In this document: positions 5,206 to 57,660 of the stretch, in pieces
How the letters are laid out: each line of letters starts with the position of its first letter
Position numbering within the stretch: position 1 is the first letter of the stretch
DNA from: Mobula hypostoma
Taxonomy: Eukaryota
Assembly: GCF_963921235.1 (NCBI RefSeq)
Contig: NC_086097.1
Span: 62,560,001 to 62,624,000 of the forward strand
Direction: 5' to 3'
DNA length: 64,000 nt
The notes under the pieces: generated by a model
Told to the model about the DNA's origin: nothing
The model's input: only the letters and a program-made list of their open reading frames with translations
Databases searched by the model: none
Program-made: the position numbers and the translations under genes

Positions 5206-5914
5206 CAGTTTTGACACTTCATATTTTTTTGTTTTATCAGCAATCGGGCTTTATGGTATGACTGTGAATTTTATTAGGAGCCAGGGAAGTAGAGAATGGC
5301 CCCCATCCAGCACGGTTTTCCTCCAAGTCATACTGGTGCAGAAAATCTCAGGCCATTTGGTCTCCCTGAGGATGAACATGAGTTTCCCAGAAACTTTGCT
5401 TTCACCACCAGAAAAACCTTTGATGACCTATACCCAACTGAAATTTGTGGAAGTAGAAATCCTTCCTATTGGGAAGAGCTTCTGGCTGTTAATGGTAACC
5501 ATTATGGAATTGTGGCAGGGCCTGAAGGGGAAACTGGAGTTCTGATCATCCACCATCCATCCATTCCCCTTTCCTGGTCTTCTCTATACTTCAAGATAAT
5601 GCATGAAGAGCTTGTGAAGTATAAATATACAATTAACTAAAGCGTGCAAATTATGTGTGCAAATGCTTTATTTTCCAATATATGTGTTGTTATTTGGTGT
5701 ACATACACAATCTATGAGACAATGCCTGTTTAGCTACTTCCCTTCATATACCATTACATTGAGGTTTCTGTCAGCATTTGCCAAGTTTGTAAATTGCCTT
5801 CTGTAAATATATCTTTTTGGAGTAATACTGATGATAAAGCAATCATTGTAGTAAATGTTTTTAGTTGTAACTGGATACCATACCAAACATTTGGCATAGT
5901 GTACACTTCTAGAA

Positions 5915-6750
5915 GCATTACAATCACAATCAAAGGACAGAAACTACAGGCAGTTGACGAGTTTACGGACCATGGCAGCACCCTCTCCCGAGCAGTGACT
6001 ATCGATACAGAATTTAACTGCAGGATAGCAAAGGCATGTTCTGCTTTCTGTAGACTGTGCTCCAATGTATGGGAATGCCGAGGAATCAGTCCAGCAACAA
6101 AACTGAATGTCTAAGAGCTGTGGTACTCACTACCCTCCTGTATGCCTGTGAAACGTGGACTGTGTATCGAAGGCATGCAAGACAGCTCAATCATTTCTAC
6201 ATGACTTGTCTTCACAGAATATTAGGCATCAGATGGCAGGACAAAGTACCAGTCACTGAAGTTCTCACTAGAGCAAGTCTACCATCAGTCCACACACTGC
6301 TGATGAGAGCACAGACCTGGTGGGCAGATCATGTCATCCGCATGCCGGACAAGCGCATACCCAAGCTGCTCCTTTTTGGGAACTCTCTGCTGGAAGCCAG
6401 AAGAAACATTACAAAGACACACTAAAGGCCTCCTGAAGTTGCTTGACATAGACTCAATCACCTGGGAAACGCTGGCACAAAACTGCCCTACCTGGCGCGG
6501 TCTTATCCACAAGGGCTGTCAAGCTTATAAAGCAAGGCGCATTGCTGAAGTACAACATTAGCGTGAGCTGCGCAAGTCCAGAGCCAGCAGCGCAACAACT
6601 GCAGTGCCTACACACGTCTGCCCAACATGTGCAGGACATTTCGTGCCCAAATTGGCCTGACCAGTCTTCGGACACACCGCAACCTGTCTCAAAGTGACTA
6701 ATGGTATCGAGGTCTTCATCGACGACGATGATGGACGAACAACAAGAAGC
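5915..6750 (+). mobile_element. RTE-clade LINE, 5'-truncated 3' portion
   Basis: Frameshifted RT C-terminus KLQAVDEFT.GSTLSRAVTID...RIAKACSAF...RAVVLTTLLYACETWTVYRRHARQLNHF...IRWQDKV, a terminal C-x2-C motif, and a short (ACA/AGA) tail. Confidence 0.9.
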
Positions 6751-7895: not shown

Positions 7896-9002
7896 CAGAA
7901 TGATAAATAATTTGTATCTCGGTTCTGATAGAAATAGGAACCAGAAAAAAAAATCCTCTCCATAAATTAATATTTAATCAAATAATTAATATTTGATAAC
8001 AAGGTTTTGGTGAGCAGTTTGTACATCAGATTAAGACTAATAGATTTGTAAACTGTAAACATGAAGAAGATACAGAACATCCAAAAGTACAGCACAGGAA
8101 CGGGCCCTTTGGCCCATCATGTCTGTAACCGACCATGATACTGATCTGAACTGATTGTAGGATTCCAAGAGTTTTGATATCATGTGAACCCCACATATAA
8201 TACCAATAACACAAACAATGCCAAAATCAAGATTCAGGCTATGTCCACACTAGACCAGATAATCTTCAAAAAGCTGGTTTCGAGTAAAAACGGCAGGCGT
8301 CCACACCAAGTGTTTTTCAAAATATCTCCGTCCACATTAGAACGGGTATTTGGCCGAATCTCCTCCTACTGGGCATGCGCAGGACACACAGAAAACAAGC
8401 AAAAAGACAAGGGTATACTTGGTGCGCGTTTGTCTTTAAAGGAACTTTAAAGGAATTGCTGTTGGCTCTAGCGGAGGAGGACTTAAAACTAAAAAAAAAA
8501 CAAATATTGGACCATATGAAGGCAACCGACAGGGAGTTCACGGACAGTATGACCCAGCTGACGATGAACATTGAAAAACCGACTGTTGCATTAATAAAGC
8601 ACCTTATTAAATGTACAAAACATGTCTGCATCTGTGTTATCTTGTATTTCCACACAACGTTACATTAGGCTGTTACACATCTATTGTCAGAGAAGTACTT
8701 GCATAAATAGGTAAACCACCTTCATACAATCAAGGACAGAAAACAGGGCAAAGTGAGTATACTTATTTTTTCAGGAAGTTATGGGTCAAAGTATTTGGTG
8801 AGTACATTTCTAACTCTTCCGGCTTCAGTCTCGTTGCCGTCTGTTCTGAAATTGTTAGGTTGCGTGGGGGGTTGCGTTCATGAAGACAATGAAATGCCGC
8901 ACTGCCGCCATCTGTTCCGGCACGTCATGACAGCGTTTCTAAATAGTCAAAAAAGCTCACTTTATAATTTAACTCTCACGCCGTTCACACCGACTGCGCG
9001 TT

Positions 9003-12000
9003 ATAGAACATAGAACATAGAATAGTACAGCACAGTACAGGCCCTTCGGCCCACAATGTTGTGCCGACACTCAAACCCTGCCTCCCATATAACCCCCCAC
9101 CTTAAATTCCTCCATATACCTGTCTAGTAGTCTCTTAAACTTCACTAGTGTATCTGCCTGCACCACTGACTCAGGCAGTGTATTCCACGCACCAACCACT
9201 CTCTGAGTAAAAAACCTTCCTCTAATATCCCCCTTGAACTTCCCACCCCTTACCTTAAAGCCATGTCCTCTTGTATTGAACAGTGGTGCCGTGGGGAAGA
9301 GGCACTGGCTATCCACTCTATCTATTCCTCTTATTATCTTGTACACCTCTATCGTGTCTCCTCTCATCTTCCTTCTCTCCAAAGAGTAAAGCCCTAGCTC
9401 CCTTAATCTCTGATCATAATCCATACTCTCTAAACCAGGCAGCATCCTGGTAAATCCTTGTACCCTTTCCAATGTTTCCACATCCTTCTTATAGTGAGGC
9501 AACCAGAACTGGACACAGTACTCCAAGTGTGGCCTAACCAGAGTTTTATAGAGCTGCATCTTTACATCGTGACTCTTAAACTCTATCCCTCGACTTATGA
9601 AAGCTAACACCACATAAGCTTTCTTAACTACGCTATCCACCTGTGAGGCAACTGTCAGGGATCTGTGGACATGTACCTGCAGATCCCTCTGTTCCTCCAC
9701 ACTACCAAGTATCCTGCCATTTACTTTGTACACTGCCTTGGAGTTTGTCCTTCCAAAGTGTACCACCTCACACTTCTCCAGGTTGAACTCCATCTGCCAC
9801 TTCTCAGCACACTTCTGCAACCTATCAATGTCTCTCTGCAATCTTCGACAATCCTCTACACTATCTACAACACCACCAACCTTTGTGTCATCTGCAAACT
9901 TGCCAATCCACCCTTCTACCCCCACATCCAGGTCATTAATAAAAATCACAAAAAGTAGCGGTCGCGGAACAGATCCTTGTGGGACACCACTAGTCACTAT
10001 CCTCCAATCTGAATGTACTCCCTCCACCATGACCCTCTGCCTTCTGCAGGCAAACCAATTCTGAATCCACATGGCCAAACTTCCCTGGATCCCATGCCTT
10101 CTGACTTTCTGAATAAGGCTACGGTGTGGAACCTTGTCAAATGTCTTACTAAAATCCATATAGATCACATCGACTGCACTATCCTCATCTATATGTCTGG
10201 TCACCTCCTCAAAGAACTCTATCAGGCTTGTTAGACACGATCTACCCTTCACAAAGCCATGCTGACTGTCCCTGATCAGACCATGATTCTCTAAATGCCC
10301 ATAGATCCTATCTCTAAGAATCTTCTCCAACAGCTTTCCCACCACAGACGTAAGGCTCACTGGTCTATAATTATCTGGACTATCCCTACTACCTTTTTTG
10401 AACAAGGGGACAACATTCGCCTCCCTCCAATCTTCTGGTACCATTCCTGTGGACAATGAGGACATAAAGATCCTAGCCAGAGGCTCAACAATCTCTTCCC
10501 TTGCCTCATGGAGCAGCCTGGGGAATATTCCGTCAGGCCCCGGGGACTTATCCGTCCTAATGCATTTTCACAACTCCAATACCTCATCTCCCTTAATATG
10601 AACATGCTCCAGAACATCAACCTCACTCATATTGTCGTCACCAACATCAAGTTCCCTCTCATTGGTGAATACCGAAAAGAAGTATTCATTGAGGACCTCA
10701 CTCGCTTCCACAGCCTCCAGGCACATCTTCCCATCTTTATCTCTAATTGGTCCTACCTTCACTCCTGTCATCCTTTTTTTCTTCACATAATTGAAGAATG
10801 CCTTGGCGTTTTCCTTTATTCTACTCGCCAAGGCCTTCTCATGCCCCCTTCTTGCTCTTCTCAGCCCCTTCTTAAGCTCCTTTCTTTCTTCCCTATAATC
10901 CTCAATAGACCCATCTGATCCTTGCTTCCTAAACCTCATGTATGCTGCCTTCTTCCACCTGACCAGATTTTCCACCTCACTTGTCACCCATGGTTCCTTC
11001 ACCCTACCATTCTTTATCTTCCTCACCGGGACAAATTTATCCCTAACATCCTGCAAGAGATCGCTAAACATCGACCACATGTCCATAGTACATTTCCCTG
11101 CAAAAACATCATCCCAATTCACATCCGCAAGTTCTAGCCTTATAGCTTCATAATTTGCCCTTCCCCAATTAAAAACTTTCCTGTCCTCTCTGATTCTATC
11201 CTTTTCCATGATAATGCTGAAGGCCAGGGAGCGGTGGTCTCTGTCCCCCAGATGCTCACCCACTGAGAGATCTGTGACCTGACCCAGTTCATTACCTAGT
11301 ACTAGATCTAGTATGACATTCCCCCTGGTCGGTCTGTCCACGTACTGTAACAGGAATCCGTCCTGGACACACTTAACAAACTCTGCCCCATCTAAACCCT
11401 TGGAACTAATCAGGTGCCAATCAATATTAGTGAAGTTAAAATCACCCATGATAACAACCCTGTTATTTTTGCAGATTTCCAAAATCTGCCTCCCAATCTG
11501 CTCCTCTGTATCTCTGCTGCTACCAGGTGCCCTATAGAATACCCCCAATAGAATAACTGCTCCCTTCCTGTTCCTGACTTCCACCCATACTGAATCAAAA
11601 GAGGATCCTGCTACATTATCCACCCTTTCTGTAGCTGTAATAGTATCCCTGACCAGTAATGCCACCCCTCCTCCCGTTTTTCTGCCCTCTCTATCCCTTT
11701 TAAAGCACTGAAATCCAGGAATATTGAGAATCCATTCCTGCCCTGGTGCCAGCCAAGTCTCTGTGATGGCCACTACATCATAATTCCATGTATGTATCCA
11801 AGCTCTCAGTTCATCACCTTTGTTCCTGATGCTTCTTGCATTGAGGTACACACATTTCAGCCCTTCTGCCTTACTACCTTTTCACCGTTTATTCTGCTTC
11901 TCTTTCCTCAAAGCCTCTCTATATGTTAGATCTGGCTTTACTCCATGCACTTCTTTCACTGCTCTATCGCTCTGGGTCCCATCCCCCTTGCAAATTAGTT

Positions 12001-12014
12001 TAAACCCTCCCAAC
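9003..12014 (-). mobile_element. CR1 LINE with essentially complete ORF2 (APE endonuclease + RT), 5'-truncated at the end of ORF1
   Basis: [40 protein letters not shown] and FADD motifs; (TTCTATG)n-type 3' tail at 9003-9022. Confidence 0.95.
9071..12004 (-). pseudogene. CR1 ORF2 (EN-RT), disrupted by at least a TGA at 11884-11882 and a break near 10568
   Basis: ORF track segments 10568..11851 and 9071..10465; the upstream frame continues to 12004. Confidence 0.9.
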
Positions 12015-13538
12015 CATGCCTGCTGTCCGGCAGTGTTTGCACAGTAGCAAGCAGAAGCAGAAAAAGCATTGTTGTTGTGGTGTTGTCATGACAGCGTTTT
12101 TAAATCTCTCCGTTTACCCTGTCCGCACTACAACGCGCAACTATCGTTTTCAACTTTACACACTCTGGAGAGTGTTTTAGAAAAGTTCTGTTTTCAGGGG
12201 ATGAAAACACCGTTTCAATGTGGATGGAGGGTCAAAACGTAGAGAAGCTTTGTTTTCAAAATTATCCGGCATAGTGTGGATGTAGCCTAATAAAAATACT
12301 TTGACTTGTTACCCGAGGAATTCTACTTCTATACAATCAGAAATCAAATTAGCAGAAGAGAAATCTCAGGCTGTTGCCTAGGTAAAACCGATTTCATATA
12401 TACTGATTGATTGCCCATATTCAGCTCTACTTTTTCAATGCTTCAAGTATTGTGATTTGTTTTATTTAAGACCTAGATAGCAAAACATTAAATATAGCTT
12501 TTTTGGCATCACGCACCAGATAATCTGCCTGGATTAATTAGTATATTCCTGCTCCTACTTCAGTCCGCTCTTCAAGTAACTGGAAGCTTCCTCAGGGATG
12601 CTAGATTTCCTTCTTTAACACTTACTTCCCTGGTTAAGCCTTCAGTGATCTTCCTTAATATCTCCTTAGTGGCTTGGTGAAGAAAAATCTAATGACATTC
12701 TTCTGAAGCACCTTAGAAAGCTTCACTGAGTTGAAGGTGCTAAAAGGTTATAATGTTGTCATTGATGATAACTATAAGAGCAACTTCACTGATTCAATTT
12801 GCCACAGAACATTCCCATGAAAGTTAAAAAAAACAATATTATCAGATTCCCACAATCCCAGAGGTTCATTTTTAGGTTTGTTAAAGGCAAATAATGTTTG
12901 AATGCTTGAGGTCATTCACAAAATGCAGACCTTAAAATAATGGCAAACCACCCTTCCCTTTAAAGCATCTTATGCATTTTATTATGACTCTGAACCTTCC
13001 CACTTCTACTCTCATCATTTACTTTCTTGTGTAATGTCGGCTCATATTTTAACCTCCAGCCTTCACCAAAGAAAAATAGAAAATACTGGAAAGTTTCAAC
13101 ATGTCAGACAGCATCTCTGAAGAGAAAGACAAAATCTGCGTGAGCTGCTTGTGTAAGTCCTGGAAATAATTTGAACTGCTAAGCACAAAAAGCTGGATTG
13201 GAAAAGAAAGGTGCACTGAATGATAGAACTTACTCTAATATCCCTACAGAACGATAACTGAGAGGTTATCCCATTGGGAAACACAAACAATGCATTTGCC
13301 ATACATAAAAAGTGTCATCCTGTTGATGTATGTGAGATGCAGAAGAGAGAAATGTGTTCAACAAACCTCGACAGAAGGAGGAAAAGATTCAAACTGCCAA
13401 GTCAGCCAGCTGTTGCAATTATCAATCATTCAGTATCTTATACATGTTATATAAAACAACATTTGGCTTGGAAATTGTTCAGGCTGAAGCATAATCTCAG
13501 ACTTCTCAATACTGCAGGCTCATTTAATACACACTTAC

Positions 13539-14167: not shown

Positions 14168-14293
14168 GATGAGGAATTCTGCAGATGCTGGAAATTCAAG
14201 TAACACACATCAAAGTTGCTGGTGAACGCAGCAGGCCAGGCAACATCTCTAGGAAGAGGTACAGTCAACGTTTCAGGCCGAGACCCTTCACGA
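14168..14293 (-). mobile_element. Penelope-type short repeat with a partial hammerhead motif
   Basis: Reverse complement GAAGGGTCTCGGCCTGAAACGTTGACTGTACCTCTTCCTAGAGATG...CCAGCATCTGCAG, same family as 42627-43036. Confidence 0.75.
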
Positions 14294-14295
14294 AA

Positions 14296-14530
14296 AGTGT
14301 GTTGGCTGTGTGGGTCGAGTCCTTGATTATCCTGGCAGCACTGCTCCGACAGCGTGCGGTGTAAAGCGAGTCCAAGGATGGAAGATTGGTTTGTGTGATG
14401 TGCTGCGCCCTGTACACGATCTTCTGCAGCTTCTTCCGGACTTGGACAGGACAACTTCCATACCAAATTGTGATGCACCCTAGAAGAATGCTTTCTACAG
14501 TGCATCTATAAAAATTAGTGAAGGTTTTAG
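14296..14530 (-). mobile_element. Rex1/Babar LINE RT C-terminal fragment
   Basis: TNFYRCTVESILLGCITIWYGSC...RKKLQKIV...IIKDSTH. Confidence 0.8.
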
Positions 14531-14835
14531 CAAGAACATAGAAAATAAAATGTTTCCTAATAATTGAAAACAAATGGTGAGATAATTATTGATCATTATA
14601 GCCATAAAGACAATATAAAATTCAGGAATGTCATTGATAGTTTCAATGAGTATAAGCCTAGTCGATCCAGTCTTTCATCATATGAAAGTCCTGCCATCCC
14701 AGGAATCAATCTGGTGAACCTTCGTTGTACTCCCTCTGGTTACATAATGTATTTCTGGTTATATGTTAAAGTGCGTAAATGGCATACGTCATCACAGCTC
14801 CACATCGTATACATGCACACCTCACTTAAAGTAAA

Positions 14836-23340: not shown

Positions 23341-24219
23341 AAACACTTTCAGTTCTAGCCCGTTTTAGTTCCGTGGCCATGATCTAACCACCATAACAGC
23401 CAGTACTCACATTATCATAATGCCAGCTAGAACTCATTTTCAACCAAGATTCAAACTGTTCTTCAGTCAGCCTGGGATTAGTTGTTCATTTCCTACCAAG
23501 ACAATCAGCCAAGTACCCTAAAACCACCGTACATTTGAGATCATTATTCATTTTCCATGCTTTCTTTGATAAAGTATGCAATCATTATTTCAGCTCTCTT
23601 GCAAGGCCACCAGATGATTAGCTTCAACAAAGAAGGCATCGTTAAAATACTGACTTATATTCATTCTCATTGTAGATATTGCCTGACTTGCCGTGTGTTT
23701 CCAAACTGTGGCAGTTTCTGTTTGAGATTTCCAGGTATCATGATGTTTTGCCTTTTATTTAAAATCAATTTTCTCAGTCCAGTGGTCACTTTTGCAAATC
23801 ACACAGTAGTTATGTAATCAAAGCTGAATTGTGTTCCACTGTAGTAATTTCCATCTCCCTCAGCAGTGTGATTTTTCAGGCACCGTGACCAGCAGTAAGA
23901 ACTGAAAAAACTTCCAACATCACTCTCTTCTGGGAGGGGGGGGGGGAGTTATCAAATGCATTTAGGGAAGAGGAGCAATCTTTTACTAATGCAATTATGA
24001 GGACATGGATTGGTATGAATAAATTATATTCATTAATAATTTCAGGGTTGCATCATGCTTATTGCAAATTTCTCAAAAATAGGTACTCTACCTATTTTAA
24101 ATGTGTTGCTTAAAACAGTATACTCTTCATATTCCAAGACATTTTTGTGTTTAAAAATGGAAAGATTTGGTTTTGAAAACAAATACAATACAGCAATGTC
24201 AGAATTTATTGCCAGTATT

Positions 24220-27200
24220 TGTTAGTGCCATTGGGGAGGCTTTAAACTAGATTTGCAGGGGGAGGGAACCAGAGTGCCAGAATTGACAGTGTGGCTGGGG
24301 TGAAAATAAATGATGTTGAAAGTTTAAGCAAATCCGCTGATAGAAAGGTTGTGAGTGGTGGTAAAAATCTTCTGAGGTGTATATATTTCAATGCTAGGAG
24401 TATTGCAGGGAAGGCGGATGAGTTGAGGGCGTGGATTGACACGTGGAATTATGACGTTATAGCAATTAGTGAAACTTGGCTACAGGAGGGGCAGGACTGG
24501 CAGCTTAATATTCTAGGGTTCCGATGTTTCAGATGTGATCAAGGCAGAGGAATGAAAGGTGGGGGAGTAGCATTGCTTGTTAGGGAAAATATTACAGCAG
24601 TGCTCAGGCAGGACAGATTAGAGGGCTTGTCTACTGAGTCCTTATGGGTGGAGCTGAGAAACAGGAAAGGTATGGCCACATTAGTGGGATTGTATTACAG
24701 ACCACCCAATAGTCAACGAGACTTGGAAGAGAAAATCTGCAGAGAGATAGCAGGCAACTGCAGGAAACATAAAGTTGTGGTGGTAGGGGATTATAATTTT
24801 CCATACATTGATTGGGACTCCCATACTGTTAGGGGTCTAGATGGTTTAGAGTTTGTAAAATGTGTTCAGGAAAGTTTTCTAAATCAATACATAGAGGGAC
24901 CAACTAGAAGGGATGCAATATTGGATCTCCTGTTAGGTAACGAATTAGGGCAAGTGACAGAAGTCTGTGTCGGGGAGCACTTTAGTTCCAGTGATCATAA
25001 CACCATTAGTTTCAATTTGATCATGGACAAGGATAGATCTGGTCCTAGGGTTGAGGTTCTGAACTGGAAGAAGGCAAATTTGAAGAAATGAGAAAGGATC
25101 TAAAAAGCGTGGATTGGGACAGGTTGTTCTCTGGCAAAGATGTGATTCGTAGGTGGGAAGCCTTCAAAGGGGAAATTTTGAGAGTGCAGAGTTTGTATGT
25201 TCCTGTCAGGATTAAAGGCAAATTGAATAGGAATAAGGAACCTTGGTTCTCAAGGGATATTGCAACTCTGAAAAAGAAGAAGAGGGAGTTGTATGAAATG
25301 TATAGGAAACAGGGGGTAAATCAGGTGCTTGAGGAGTATAAGAAGTGCAAGGAAATACTTAAGAAAGAAATCAGGAGGGCTAAAAGAAAACATGAGGTTG
25401 CCTTGGCAGTCAAAGTGAAGGATAATCCAAAGAGCTTTTACAAGTATATTAAGAGCAAAAGGATTGTAAGGGATAAAATTGGTCCTCTTGAAGATCAGAG
25501 TGGTCGACTTTGTGCGGAACCAAAGGAAATGGGGGAGATCTTAAATAGGTTTTTTGCGTCTGTATTTACTAAGGAAGCTGGCATGAAATCCATGGAATTG
25601 AGGGAATCAAGTAGAGAGACCATGGAAACTGTACAGATTGAAAAGGAGGAGGTGCTTGCTGTCTTGAGGAAAATTAAAGTGGATAAATCCCCGGGACCTG
25701 ACAGAGTGTTCCCTCGGACCTTGAAGGAGACTAGTGTTGAAATTGCGGGGATCCTGGCAGAAATATTTAAAATGTCGCTGTCTACGGGTGAAGTGCCGGA
25801 GGATTGGAGAGTGGCTCATGTTGTTCCATAGTTTAAAAAAGGATCGAAAAGTAATCTGGGAAATTATAGGCCGGTGAGTTTAACGTCAGTAGTAGGTAAG
25901 TTATTGGAGGGAGTACTAAGAGACAGAATCTACAAGCATTTGGATAGACAGGGGCTTATTAGGGAGAGTCAACATGGCTTTGTGCATGGTAGGTCATGTT
26001 TGACCAATCTGTTGGAGTTTTTCGAGGAGGTTACCAGGAAAGTGGATGAAGGGAAGGCAGTGGATATTGTCTACATGGACTTCAGTAAGGCCTTTGACAA
26101 GGTCCCGCATGGGAGGTTAGTTAGGAAAATTCAGTCGCTAGGTATACATGGAGAGGTGGTAAATTGGATTAGACATTGGCTCGAGGGAAGAAGCCAGAGA
26201 GTGGTGGTAGAGAATTGCTTCTCTGAGTGGAGGCCTGTGACTAGTGGTGTGCCACAGGGATCAGTGCTGGGTCCATTGTTATTTGTCATCTATATCAATG
26301 ATCTGGATGATAATGTGGTAAATTGGATCAGCAAGTTTGCTGATGATACAAAGATTGGAGGTGTAGTAGACAGTGAGGAAGGTTTTCAGAGCCTGCAGAG
26401 GGAATTGGACCAACTGGAAAAATGGGCTGAAAAATGGCAGATGGAGTTTAATACTGACAAGTGTGAGATATTGCATGTTGGAAGGACAAACCAAGGTAGA
26501 ACATACAGGGTTAATGGTAAGACACTGAGGAGTGCAGTGGAACAGAGGGATCTGGGAATACAGATACAAAATTCCCTAAAAGTGTCGTCACAGGTAGATA
26601 GGGTTGTAAAGAGAGCTTTTGGTACATTGGCCTTTATTAATCGAAGTATTGAGTATAAGAGCTGGAATGTTATGATGAGGTTGTATAAGGCAGTGGTGAG
26701 GCCGAATCTGGAGTATTGTGTTCAGTTTTGGTCACCAAATTACAGGAAGGATATAAATAAGGTTGAAAGAGTGCAGAGAAGGTTTACAAGGATGTTGCCG
26801 GGACTTGAGAAACTCTGTTACAGAGAAAGGTTGAATAGGTTAGGACTTTATTCCCTGGAGCGTAGAAGAATGAGGGGAGATTGGATAGAGGTATATAAAA
26901 TTATGATGGGTACAGATAGAGTGAATGCAAGCAGGCTTTTTCCACTGAAGGCAAGGGGAGAAAAAAACCAGATGATATGGGTTAAGGGTGAGGGGGGAAA
27001 AGTTTAAAGGGAACATTAGGGGGGGCTTCTTCACACAGAGAGTGGTGGGAGTATGGAATGAGCTGCCAGACGAGGTGGTAAATGCGGGTTCTTTTTTAAC
27101 ACTTAAGAATAAATTGGACAGATACATGGATGGGAGGTGTATGGAGGGATATGGTCCGTGTGCAGGTCAGTGGGACTAGGCAGAAAATGGTACAGCACAG

Positions 27201-35289: not shown

Positions 35290-37446
35290 CTCAGGGCTCC
35301 TTCACAGTGGATATGCAATGGCAAGCATTTAAAGGTTGCATGGATGAACTACAACAATTGTTCATCCCAGTTTGGCAAAAGAATAAATCAAGGAAGGTAG
35401 TGCACCCGTGGCTGACAAGAGAAATTAGGGATAGTATCAATTCCAAAGAAGAAGCATACAAATTAGCCAGAAAAAGTGGCTCACCTGAGGACTGGGAGAA
35501 ATTCAGAGTTCAGCAGAGGAGGACAAAGGGCTTAATTAGGAAGGGGAAAAAAGATTATGAGAGAAAACTGGCAGGGAACATAAAAACTGACTGTAAAAGC
35601 TTTTATAGATATGTAAAAAGGAAAAGACTGGTAAAGACAAATGTAGGACCCCTACAGACAGAAACAGGTGAATTGATTATGGGAGCAAGGACATGGCAGA
35701 CCAATTGAATAATTACTTTGGTTCTGTCTTCACTAAGGAGGACATAAATAATCTTCTGGAAATAGTAGGGGACAGAGGGTCCAGTGAGATGGAGGAACTG
35801 AGCGAAATACATGTTAGTAGGGAAGTGGTGTTAGGTAAATTGAAGGGATTGAAGGCAGATAAATCCCCAGGACCAGATGGTCTGCATCCCAGAGTGCTTA
35901 AGGAAGTAGCCCAAGAAATAGTGGATGCATTAGTGATAATTTTTCAAAACTTGTTAGATTCTGGACTAGTTCTTGAAGATTGGAGGGTGGCTAATGTAAA
36001 CCCACTTTTTAAAAAAGGAGGGAGAGAGAAACCGGGGAATTATAGACCGGTTAGCCTAACGTCGGTGGTGGGGAAACTGCTGGAGTCAGTTATCAAAGAT
36101 GTGATAACAGCACATTTGGAAAGCGGTGAAATCATCGGACAAAGTCAGCATAGATTTGTGAAAGGAAAATCATGTCTGACGAATCTCATAGAATTTTTTG
36201 AGGATGTAACTAGTAGAGTGGATAGGGGAGAACCAGTGGATGTGGTGTATTTGGATTTTCAAAAGGCTTTTGACAAGGTCCCACACAGGAGATTAGTGTG
36301 CAAACTTAAAGCACACGGTATTGGGGGTAAGGTATTGATGTGGATAGAGAATTGGTTAGCAGACAGGAAGCAAAGAGTGGGAATAAACGGGACATTTTCA
36401 GAATGGCAGGCGGTGACTAGTGGGGTACCACAAGGCTCAGTGCTGGGACCCCAGTTGTTTACAATATATATTAGTGACTTGGATGAGGGAATTAAATGCA
36501 GCATCTCCAAGTTTGCGGATGACACGAAGCTGGGTGGCAGTGTTAGCTGTGAGGAGGATGCTAAGAGGATGCAGAGTGACTTGGATAGGTTGGATGAGTG
36601 GGCAAATTCATGGCAGATGCAATTTAATGTGGATTAATGTGAAGTTATCCACTTTGGTGTCAAAAACAGGAAAGCAGATTATTATCTGAATTGTGGCCGA
36701 TTAGGAAAAGGGGAGGTGCAACGAGACCTGGGTGTCATTATACACCAGTCATTGAAAGTGGGCATGCAGGTACAGCAGGCAGTGAAAAAGGCGAATGGTA
36801 TGCTGGCATTTATAGCGAGAGGATTCGAGTACAGGAGCAGGGAGGTACTACTGCAGTTGTACAAGGCCTTGGTGAGACCACACCTGGAGTATTGTGTGCA
36901 GTTTTGGTCCCCTAATCTGAGGAAAGACATCCTTGCCATTGAGGGAGTTCAAAGAAGGTTCACCAGATTGATTCCTGGGATGGCAGGACTTTCATATGAA
37001 GAAAGACTGGATGAACTGGGCTTGTACTCGTTGGAATTTAGAAGATTGAGGGGGGATCTGATTGAAACGTATAAGATCCTAAAGGGATTGGACAGACTAG
37101 ATGCAGGAAGATTGTTCCCGATGTTGGGGAAGTCCAGAACGAGGGGTCACAGTTTGAGGATAAAGGGGAAGCCTTTTAGGACCGATATGAGGAAAAACTT
37201 CTTCACACAGAGAGTGGTGAATCTGTGGAATTCTCTGCCACAGGAAACAGTTGAGGCCAGTTCATTGGCTATATTTAAGAGGGAGTTAGATATGGCCCTT
37301 GTGGCTACGGGGATCGGGGGTATGGAGGGAAGGCTGGGGCAGGGTTCTGAGTTGGATGATCAGCCATGATCATAGTAAATGGCGGTGCAGGCTCGAAGGG
37401 CCGAATGGCCTACTCCTGCACCTACTTTCTATGTTTCTATGTTTCT
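35290..37446 (+). mobile_element. CR1 LINE, 5'-truncated (tether + RT + 3' UTR)
   Basis: ORFs 35307-35708, 35693-36637 and 36716-37369 with RT motifs; tail TTTCTATGTTTCTATGTTTCT. Confidence 0.95.
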
Positions 37447-37739: not shown

Positions 37740-38375
37740 AGGGACAAACAGAGTGGATAGCCAGAGATCTTTTCTCAGGGCAGAAATGGCTAATACAAGG
37801 GGCATCATTTTGGAGATTGGAGGAAAGTATCAAAGGGAATATGAGGGCAGGTCTTTTACAGAGTAGTAGTTGTGCGGAATATGCTGCTGGGGTGGTGGGA
37901 GAGGCGGATACATTAGGGACATTTAATAGTTGCTTAGGTAGGCACATAGGTGATAGAAAAATGGAGGGCAATGTGGGAGGGAAGGGTTAGGCTGATTTTA
38001 GAGTAGATTAAAAGGTCAGCACAACATTGTGGGCTGAAGGGCCTGTATGTGCTGTAGTGTTTTAGACCTTTCAGTTTCCCAAGCACTTGCCCCTCAGGTG
38101 CAGTTGAATTTCGGATATGCAACTGCTGTCTTCCATAGTGATGACTAACGCAAAATAGTTAGGCACAATACCTGTTGTTTCTTTATTCCCTATTACTATC
38201 ATTCCAGCAATCCAAAGTCCACTTTTGACTCTCCTTTATTCTTTATATATCGGAAAATCTTTTTGGCATCCTCTTTCATACTATTGGCTGCTTACCGTCA
38301 TATTTCATCTTTGCTCTCCTTATTGCTTTTTTTAGTTGCGGCTGTTGGTTTTTTTCTAAAGCTTCCCATCCTTTA
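37740..38375. mobile_element. CR1 3' fragment (+, 37740-38060) abutting a CR1 internal fragment (-, 38060-38375)
   Basis: CACAACATTGTGGGCTGAAGGGCCTGTA 3' motif, followed by antisense VLGKLKGLK. Confidence 0.7.
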
Positions 38376-46734: not shown

Positions 46735-48268
46735 AGAACATAGAACATAAAAAATGGAAAAATACAGCATAGATACAGGCATAATATTGTGCTGAGCTAA
46801 TTAAAATAGTAATCAAATGGACAACTAAACTAAATTCTTCTTTCTTTTACAATCTTTTTTATTGAGTTTCAAATTGATAAACATAATGATAATGATACAA
46901 AGAGATCGGGATTACAGTAATAATGATTAATGTATACAGACATAGATTCCGAGTAACATATTTAATTTAAACCTCCCAATCTCTTAATAACTGAACATGA
47001 AAAAGGTTTTTAAAAAAGTTTTTACCCCCTACACTAAAAAATAACAAAACAAAACAAAACAATACAAAGACTCGGCTGCCATATTTCATTGGTTAAGATC
47101 ATTATTTGTCATTAACTCTGCTCCTCTATACATAAGCAAAAAGTTATTAAAAAGGATTCGGAAAAGGTCAACTTACATCATATAAAAATGTTGAATTCTC
47201 CAACTAATTAACACTTCTTTAGTGTGAGCTAAACACGCTTTTATACAATTTAAGGTGGTTCATAGGGCCCGTATGTCTAAGGATAAGTTAGCTCATTTTT
47301 ATGGTCATATAAATCCTGTCTGTGACGGATGTAATTCTGAGGTAGCTTCCTTGACACATATGTTCTGGTCTTGCCCTCTTTTGGAAAAATATTGGGAAGA
47401 CATTTTTGATATTATTTCAGTAGTTTTGTGTATCGATTTACAACCTCATCCTATTCCTGAAATTTTTGGATTACCAGTGATAGACTTTAGTCATTTATCC
47501 CCTTCAGCTTGTCGTTTGATTGCATTTGTTACATTAATAGCCAGAAGATCCATTTTATTTAAATGGAAAGATTCTAATCCCCCTACTACATTTCAATAGT
47601 TTTCCCAAACTATAACAAGTTTAAATTTGGAAAAAAATTAGGAGTGGTACCATTGAACCTTCGGTTAAATTTGAAGAAACTTGGAGGCCATTTAAACTAA
47701 ACTCTTCTGCCTTCTAAATGTCTGCATCCTTCCATTTTCCAGGTGTCTATCTAAATGTCTCTTAAAAGCCCTTCATGTATCTGCCTCTACAAGCACTTCA
47801 GGCAGCACATTCCAGGCACCCAACACTACCCGTGTAAAAAAAACTTGACCCTCACATCTCCTTTGAAATTACCCCCCCTCACCTTAAATGCATGCCCTCC
47901 AGTTTTAGACATTACAACCCTGGGGAAATTATACAGTCTGTCCAATCTATCTATGCCTCTCACAATCTTACAATCCTTTATCAAAACTCCCCTCAGCCTC
48001 CACTGCTTCAGAGAAACAACCTAAGTCTGTCCAACCTCTCATTATTGTACATGACCTCTAATCCAGGCAGCATCCTAGTAAATCCATTCCCTCTCCAAAG
48101 CCTCGACGTCTTTCTGATAATGAGGCCACCAGAAGTGTATGCAAAACTCCAGATGCAATTAACTCGAGTTTTATAAAACTGCAACGTAACTTCCCGATTT
48201 TTGAACAGTGCCCTGACTAATGAAGGCAAGCATGCCATATGCCTTCTTAACCACCCTATCAACCTGTG
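46735..48268 (-). mobile_element. CR1 3' fragment interrupted by an L1 insertion
   Basis: AGAACATAGAACATA tail at 46735; CR1 sequence resumes after 47693 (antisense GFTRMLPGLE...ERLDRL). Confidence 0.8.
46842..47692 (-). mobile_element. L1 insertion with 5' inversion (3' UTR on - strand 46842-47196; inverted ORF2 C-terminus on + strand 47195-47692), 16-bp TSD
   Basis: + segment IQFKVVHR...CDGC...HMFWSCP...FEETWRPF; - segment continues IQHFYMM* then UTR, AATAAA and an A-rich tail. TSD TAAACTAAA(T/C)TCTTCT at 46826-41 and 47693-708. Confidence 0.85.
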
Positions 48269-57229: not shown

Positions 57230-57660
57230 ACCATATAACCATATAATAATTACAGCACGGAAACAGGCCATCTCCGCCCTTCTAGTCCATGCCGAGCTCT
57301 TACTCTCACCTAGTCCCACCGACCTGCACTCAGCCCATAACCCTCCATTCCTTTCCTGTCCATATATCTGTCCAACTCAACTTTAAACGACAACATCGAA
57401 CCTGCCTCAACCACTTCTGCTGGAAGCTCGTTCCACACAGCCACCACTCTCTGAGTAAAGAAGTTCCCCTTCATGTTACCCCTAAACTTTTGCCCTTTAA
57501 CTCTTAACTCATGTCCTCTTGTTTGAATCTCCCCCAGTCTCAATGGAAAAAGCCTATCCACGTCAACTCTGTCAATCCCCCTCATAATTTTAAACATCTC
57601 TATCAAGTCCCCCCTCAACCTTCTACATTCCAAAGAATAAAGATCTAACTTGTTCAACCT
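57230..57660 (-). mobile_element. CR1 3' end, well preserved
   Basis: LNKLDLYSLECRRLRGDLIE...FFTQRVVAVWNELP; ACCATATAACCATATA tail. Confidence 0.9.

Follow-up and report, generated by a model that had tools for sequence, protein, structure and literature searches.

Background

CR1 elements are a dominant repeat of sharks, reptiles and birds, and the few long interspersed nuclear elements (LINEs) in which production of the protein of the second open reading frame (ORF2p) is known are taken to use reinitiation. Human L1 and silkworm SART1, like CR1, have a bicistronic RNA from which ORF2 is translated unconventionally and in dependence on the translation of ORF1 (PMC2881922; citations here and below refer to portions of the papers named). 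Precedents for −1 ribosomal frameshifting among non-LTR retroelements are TRE5-A and Penelope: TRE5-A and TRE3-A of Dictyostelium, likewise APE-type LINEs, need a −1 frameshift for ORF2 (PMC5911963), and in Penelope-like elements a change of frame separates ORF1 from the reverse transcriptase as it does in CR1, with a pseudoknot indicated there (PMC8557442) and none found in CR1. For CR1 itself no precedent and no report of frameshifting at the junction was found in the literature covered, which did not include the primary CR1 papers, and such a proposal may well have been published before; PMC11835228, PMC13708176, PMC3592465 and PMC1925062 contained nothing to the point, the part covered of PMC5009743 mentions HeT-A and TART but not CR1, and the word frameshift was not found in the part covered of a paper on the esterase (PMC3905857). 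Here we describe the ORF1/ORF2 junction of a CR1 copy in a 64,000-nucleotide stretch of the Mobula hypostoma genome (contig NC_086097.1, positions 62,560,001 to 62,624,000; hereafter the window). As a sequence-only reading of the window had proposed for the endonuclease and reverse transcriptase of these elements, esterase-type CR1 LINEs probably make ORF2 as an ORF1–ORF2 fusion by programmed −1 ribosomal frameshifting, and the junction, judged by its sequence, is a real, deeply conserved signal of the recoding type, most likely a −1 frameshift signal with a non-canonical stimulator.

Slippery heptamer at the CR1 junction of the window

The CR1 copy, 5′-truncated and decayed, occupies 9003..12019 on the minus strand, the strand of all its features given below; it is of the type with an esterase ORF1 (ORF1 type IVB; PMC4120745) and represents what we call family A, whose sister-copy matches mostly start at 12019. 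All that is left of ORF1 is its 3′ end (11995..12019), where sister copies read ...ASMVREGLN*; truncation at about 12019 has spared some 15 nt ahead of the heptamer, and one base is missing relative to sister copies just 5′ of it. The slippery heptamer U_UUA_AAC (TTTAAAC, 11998..12004), conserved across lineages, stands in the X_XXY_YYZ phase of ORF1 and adjoins the ORF1 stop (11995..11997), which is TAA here and TAA or TAG depending on the lineage. The −1 frame, counted from 12004, is the ORF2 frame: a linker of 51 codons without ATG (11852..12004) leads over 153 nt to the motif VYLNARS, followed by the APE endonuclease domain (11255..11851; Pfam PF03372, E 1.9e-16) and by the rest of ORF2 with the reverse transcriptase region (9071..10570), which is recognised by sequence motifs in this copy and in an intact copy, L106. 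The first methionine of this frame is codon 185 (11449–11447), 134 residues past the V of VYLNARS and within the motif IMGDFN. A G-rich motif, GGGGGATGGGA (11977..11987), begins 10 nt after the heptamer and is a candidate stimulator. The frame is broken by a TGA in the linker (11884–11882), attributed to decay because the same TGA occurs in only 2 of 30 family loci, and by a second TGA (10570–10568) ahead of the reverse transcriptase region, which is also read as decay.

The sequence-only reading had placed the heptamer and stop in this phase, traced ORF2 to the −1 frame 153 nt ahead of VYLNARS, blamed the intervening TGA on decay, found no ATG until about 135 residues into the endonuclease and seen a G-rich tract about 10 nt downstream, all of which was borne out. 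Its presumed upstream ORF1 also held, since sister copies encode there a Cys-rich/SGNH-esterase protein ending ...GLN*. The overlapping G_GGU_UUA that it marked is present (GGGTTTA, 12001..12007) but was rejected as a second shift site, as the codon before TTA is of five kinds among ten lineages (GGT, GCT, ACT, TGT or AGT) and the overlap is found in 5/10 lineages only. A search of the window with GGGTTTAAACTAR, allowing at most one mismatch, returned 2 matches against 0.29 expected, both of them CR1 junctions. The window copy is dead, and the mechanism pertains to active members of the family.

Conservation of the junction among sister loci and CR1 lineages

In the 3.48-Gb genome assembly, family A was sampled as the 30 best-matching loci including the window copy, a selection biased by a query that held the junction. 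The heptamer is intact in 29/30 and the heptamer with its stop in 28/30, while the −1 frame is open from heptamer to endonuclease motif in 25/30, with a methionine before the motif in 2. Five codons 5′ of the heptamer, 26 of the other 29 loci have a TAG that shuts the −1 frame, so that in family A ORF2 cannot begin further upstream. ORF1 of sister copy L005 has a Cys-rich N-terminus and an SGNH esterase (Pfam PF13472, E 4.3e-14, above cut-off), the domain that is absent from the truncated window copy, and the nearest named ORF1 relatives are from rays and sharks.

Lineages B to G were found through searches with other ORF1 proteins, and the counts that follow are of intact heptamers: B reads GCT TTA AAC TAG (19/20 aligned; 30 loci counted, 10 left out of the alignment), C reads ACT TTA AAC TAG (11/11 oriented loci), D reads GGT TTA AAC TAA (12/12), E reads GGT TTA AAC TAG (18/19, with the stop intact in 15), F reads TGT TTA AAC TAA (13/14) and G, known from one locus, reads GCT TTA AAT TAA. 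A junction-blind sample was drawn with a distant esterase lacking the LN end as query, and 28 of its 127 matches were aligned (8 given loci plus the 20 plus-strand rows that came next). Of these 28, 23 have an intact heptamer and all share the invariant bases G-T-T-T, and the sample added lineages H (AGT), I and J (both GGT). Three rows were left out, L070 (wrong strand), L096 (duplicate of L092) and L107 (wrong region). Every one of the 10 CR1 lineages sampled has NNT TTA AAY TAR and the G-rich motif, with ORF2 in −1; the conservation and phase of heptamer and stop to which the sequence-only reading had looked are thus kept throughout this genome's sample, and other vertebrates bear on them at the protein level. 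From the heptamer, the −1 frame continues to the endonuclease motif in each of the ten, through linkers of 46 to ~107 codons, with single decay stops in some copies; lineage E has two linker types that differ mainly by a 51-nt block.

Lineage C is young, with 127 scored ORF1 matches at 98–100% identity and without stops. In its intact copy L106 the ORF2 frame begins two codons ahead of the heptamer and is 1006 codons long; its first methionine is codon 207, once more inside IMGDFN. Two further copies of this lineage are broken. Separately, lineage C (L061–L072, L105–L108) comprises one or more elements in which neither ORF is broken and shows a tandem duplication of ~150 nt in the 5′ untranslated region. 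In the linker of this lineage the G-motif recurs (L106:2075–2096, AGAGGGATGGGAACCAG) ~55 nt past the first copy, which suggests linker growth by junction duplication.

Constraint at the nucleotide level

Heptamer, stop and G-motif together occur 20,486 times in the genome compared with 2 for a reversed control. Genome-wide, the synonymous variants that break the heptamer number 253 for TTA>TTG and 417 for T>C at the first base, or 1.2% and 2.0% of the intact count, and the non-synonymous control AAC>GAC numbers 140, though with variable gaps some places were perhaps counted twice in these figures; synonymous change therefore does not freely destroy the heptamer, an outcome that the sequence-only reading had named as one that would refute it. 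The listed variants are spread over many lineages and spacer types, as expected for decay after insertion. Among lineage representatives, TTA is the only codon used for the terminal Leu of ORF1 and T is the only base at the end of the codon before it, while in the ILAG motif, ~10 codons upstream, Gly is GGT, GGG, GGA or GGC and Leu is CTT, CTG or CTA; the lineages also differ freely in the spacer that separates the stop from the G-tract. By these comparisons of sequence, the synonymous positions of the heptamer are conserved.

ORF1 C-termini and distant relatives

Among 40 homologues fetched of 47, 28 end in xLN*. A profile search gave 48 proteins that reach the C-terminus (28 xLN*, 7 QGN*, 1 SSN* and 12 other), and 26 further proteins, partly from cluster members, comprise 16 xLN*, 1 VSN* and 9 other; the profile favours LN, and these counts are not frequencies. 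LN* thus stands in 72/114 ORF1-like proteins fetched, and in 71 of the 72 the residue x allows a codon ending in T, the single exception having one of K, E, Q, M or W, whose codons never do. Those xLN* proteins that have a named source belong to a snake, two lizards, a turtle, a bird and a frog (protein only).

A metagenome scan gave five loci (L125–L129) to which no host was assigned, of which L126 ends ahead of the junction. It had been predicted beforehand that the QGN* end would be CAG GGA AAC, and L125 reads CAG GGA AAC TAG with ORF2 in −1. L127 has TGT TTA AAC TAA (U_UUA_AAC) and L128 has TCG TTA AAC TAG (G_UUA_AAC), both with ORF2 in −1 and a G-tract 7 nt on, so that this one position holds any of three shift sites, each of them known. 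U_UUA_AAC and G_GGA_AAC are among the shiftiest heptamers (PMC5009743), and GUU is a tolerated deviation in a slippery heptamer (PMC3542737). As in a canonical −1 signal, X_XXY_YYZ lies in the zero-frame phase and an ORF is open in −1 in 10/10 lineages and in 3/4 metagenomic loci with a junction. The G_GGA_AAC form was absent from this genome (17 matches, compared with 63 for a control). A search for longer fused proteins gave 13 matches, and the 6 inspected were gene models that skip the junction.

Some proteins of this survey stand apart. In P0103, P0128, P0093 and P0147, an invertebrate-type ORF1 ends in ...W(R/A)KN plus ~10 residues, or in xSN*, ends that are possibly the site variants A_AAA_AAC and U_UCA_AAC. 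P0025, a stingray gene model, passes without a break from the esterase to FKLNLQG and on to the endonuclease, so that ORF1 and ORF2 already share one frame in this copy or model. P0021, a shark-type CR1 ORF1 58% identical to the query, is deposited as a Pseudomonas aeruginosa SGNH hydrolase, a record that is likely assembly contamination.

The downstream G-rich motif

Downstream of the heptamer, at 7–12 nt (10 nt in 7/10 lineages), is a conserved element consisting of a run of at least 4 G and a further GG(G). It codes for G-x-G in the ray lineages and for other residues in L127 and L128, which would indicate a role at the RNA level. With no more than two constant G-runs, the motif falls short of a standard intramolecular quadruplex in most lineages, and a 2016 review knew of no natural G-quadruplex that stimulates frameshifting, in the part covered (PMC5009743). 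A pairing between upstream and downstream sequence in family A was considered and dropped, as it is not retained in family B.

Discussion

If the junction works as proposed, most ribosomes would terminate after ...Leu-Asn and release ORF1p, whereas a minority would move back by one base on U_UUA_AAC and resume reading with CUA. For the window family the predicted junction peptide is ...G-L-N-L-I-C-K-G-D-G..., to be followed by the variable linker, the endonuclease and the reverse transcriptase. Given that no hairpin was found, slippage would be low-level. It may be aided by a pause at the stop next to the heptamer, by the G-rich motif, which would lie where mRNA enters the ribosome, or by both, and the motif might act through a bound protein or as a G-quadruplex. 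A wider form of the proposal, which we hold only tentatively and think doubtful as a whole, is that a Gag-Pol-like fusion of esterase, endonuclease and reverse transcriptase is common to the CR1s of invertebrate-type hosts, sharks, reptiles and birds and is made through a new kind of −1 frameshift signal. Its parts would be the heptamer, the abutting stop and an unstructured G-rich stimulator, and the stimulator would be read by a protein (a host G-run binder or ORF1p) or would be a natural G-quadruplex. Such a signal would amount to a regulatable switch on the enzyme of a most abundant vertebrate transposon family.

Several findings weigh against frameshifting. A canonical −1 signal requires a downstream structure (PMC3542737), and no stem-loop or pseudoknot was found 5–9 nt downstream here: 1/16 folded windows had a z below −2 and no conserved hairpin was found, the alignment fold reached −1.17 kcal/mol with two pairs and no covariation or compensatory pair, and no complementary C-rich stretch occurs on the sense strand within the intact element L106. 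The folding tools predict no pseudoknots, but no conserved first stem was seen. As the canonical second element is missing, the junction is not filed as a canonical two-part signal, though by all other sequence tests it behaves as one. The lineages are related and hence are not independent trials. The synonymous variants are 1.8x and 3x as frequent as the non-synonymous control, in which slight tolerance and mutational context are not separable. Support from tetrapods is at the protein level only, a search for tetrapod CR1 DNA having found none in viral contigs, none in plasmids and one weak short match in GTDB. The G_GGA_AAC form rests on one DNA locus (L125), and L129 (21% identity) is without such a site and has ORF2 in the +1 frame with AUGs. 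Finally, near-cognate TTG or ATT lies at most 3 codons from the stop in lineages A, B, C, D, E, H and I (7/10), and in-frame AUGs occur at or before the start of the endonuclease in lineages D, F, G, H and I and in L125, L127 and L128. These codons would permit reinitiation.

The main rival to frameshifting is termination with reinitiation, in which ribosomes that had stopped at the end of ORF1 would resume in the −1 frame, either at a near-cognate codon close by (UUG or AUU) or at an AUG of the linker, and would yield ORF2p as a separate protein; the conserved sequence would then be a termination or tethering signal. For human L1 and silkworm SART1 reinitiation is the model generally accepted (PMC2881922), in caliciviruses it can use non-AUG codons (PMC3542737), and the near-cognate codons and AUGs just listed supply places for it. 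Those AUGs, however, are at unrelated, unconserved positions in five lineages, and the examined copies of the other 5/10 lineages, including the intact element, have no usable in-frame AUG before the endonuclease; a conserved AUG there, which the sequence-only reading had held would refute it, was thus not found. No AUG overlaps or adjoins the stop in the ORF2 frame in any of the 10 lineages, and F, G and J have no near-cognate codon beside the stop. Reinitiation also leaves unexplained the constant X_XXY_YYZ heptamer before the stop and its switch to G_GGA_AAC, and known tethering motifs lie 40–90 nt upstream of the stop (PMC3542737), whereas the CR1 G-motif (GGGA) lies downstream. On this balance we regard reinitiation as unlikely.

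Two other routes were considered. The esterase might simply need a C-terminal Leu-Asn, the nucleotides being inherited and ORF2 made by an unrelated route such as internal initiation; this would agree with LN* in so many of the fetched proteins, with shared ancestry and with the excess of synonymous variants over the control. It does not account for wobble positions that are fixed at the junction while neighbouring wobbles are free, nor for a C-terminus that turns to GN* exactly where the heptamer turns to G_GGA_AAC, and many homologous esterases do without LN* (12/48), which makes constraint at the protein level alone very improbable. Alternatively, splicing to an acceptor just past the stop, or polymerase slippage on T/A or G runs, might bring ORF2 in frame with an upstream AUG. 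Lineages B, D and E contain TTTGCAG|G, which by the usual consensus looks like a 3′ splice site, and the length of the G-run differs between copies; against this, neither lineage H nor the young lineage C has an AG ahead of the G-run, and splicing would leave spliced copies in the genome too, where the aligned copies show an unspliced junction. No joint was listed in L106:1975–2050 in 4 sequencing runs, and 0/15 joints shown (of 81) end there, a weak point as the RNA status of the contigs is a guess. Contigs of 4 runs from other organisms (two runs with 1–2 contigs) likewise show no variant at 10% or more at L106:2006–2048, though contigs cannot show expression. To an RNA-level route we give scarcely any credence, and programmed frameshifting stays the reading that we consider probable.

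Other features of the window

The second junction of the window belongs to family B and reads GCT TTA AAC TAG followed by the G-rich motif (24238..24272, junction 24238–24250, plus strand), with a 1-nt deletion in the motif of this copy. It lies in one of several further CR1 fragments that are 64–69% identical to the studied copy: 24215–27070 (plus), 35975–36657 (plus), 47757–48268 (minus), 37750–38064 and 57431–57650. The 24.2-kb fragment is also truncated just ahead of its junction. A 5′-truncation hotspot at the junction was considered, since in both copies of the window the truncation point is no more than about 30 nt from the heptamer, yet among other loci only ~3/29 and 2/19 end within 135 nt, and the idea was abandoned.

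CR1 elements end in short tandem repeats rather than poly(A), and TTCTATG-type repeats form the 3′ end of the studied copy (~9003–9025) and are found in L106 as well. The copy is inserted into a DNA-transposon-like element with 36-nt inverted ends (8236–8271 and 12253–12288, 81% complementary), whose end motif we take to be Harbinger-like, and with a 21-nt internal repeat at 8924 and 12085. Other retroelement-like fragments lie at 5734–6561 (plus) and 14265–14585 (minus), presumably RTE-like and L2-like by their motifs.

Comparison with known recoding systems

Were frameshifting correct, the CR1 enzyme would be a fusion that carries the esterase, altering the picture of ribonucleoprotein assembly, and the ratio of ORF1p to ORF2p would be set in the manner of retroviruses. 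The missing start codon of CR1 ORF2 would also be explained, and annotators and genome engineers would learn where the protein starts. The CR1 stimulator is apparently not a hairpin.

In arteriviruses, the C-rich motif is spaced 10 nt from the shift site. Frameshifting at the arterivirus nsp2 site is stimulated in trans by nsp1-beta and poly(C)-binding protein (PMC5009743) and offers a possible model for a structure-free motif ~10 nt past the site, though the CR1 motif is G-rich, with a binding partner that is only hypothetical. Viral −1 sites of the types U_UUA_AAC (coronavirus infectious bronchitis virus, IBV), G_GGA_AAC and G_UUA_AAC (equine arteritis virus) have the same heptamers and X_XXY_YYZ phase as CR1 (PMC5009743; PMC3542737), and in both a polymerase-type ORF lies in −1 downstream of an abundant first protein. 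CR1 differs in being a LINE and not a virus, and in having a G-rich, single-stranded motif where the viral sites have a stem-loop or pseudoknot. TRE5-A and TRE3-A belong to a different lineage and host kingdom, and no esterase ORF1 is described there, in the part covered (PMC5911963). Some Penelope elements and RTEX carry the same SGNH esterase as CR1 (PMC3905857), while Penelope-like elements are of a different class, with a GIY-YIG endonuclease. Human L1 and SART1 produce a separate ORF2p by reinitiation (PMC2881922), whereas the sequence of the CR1 junction points to a fusion.

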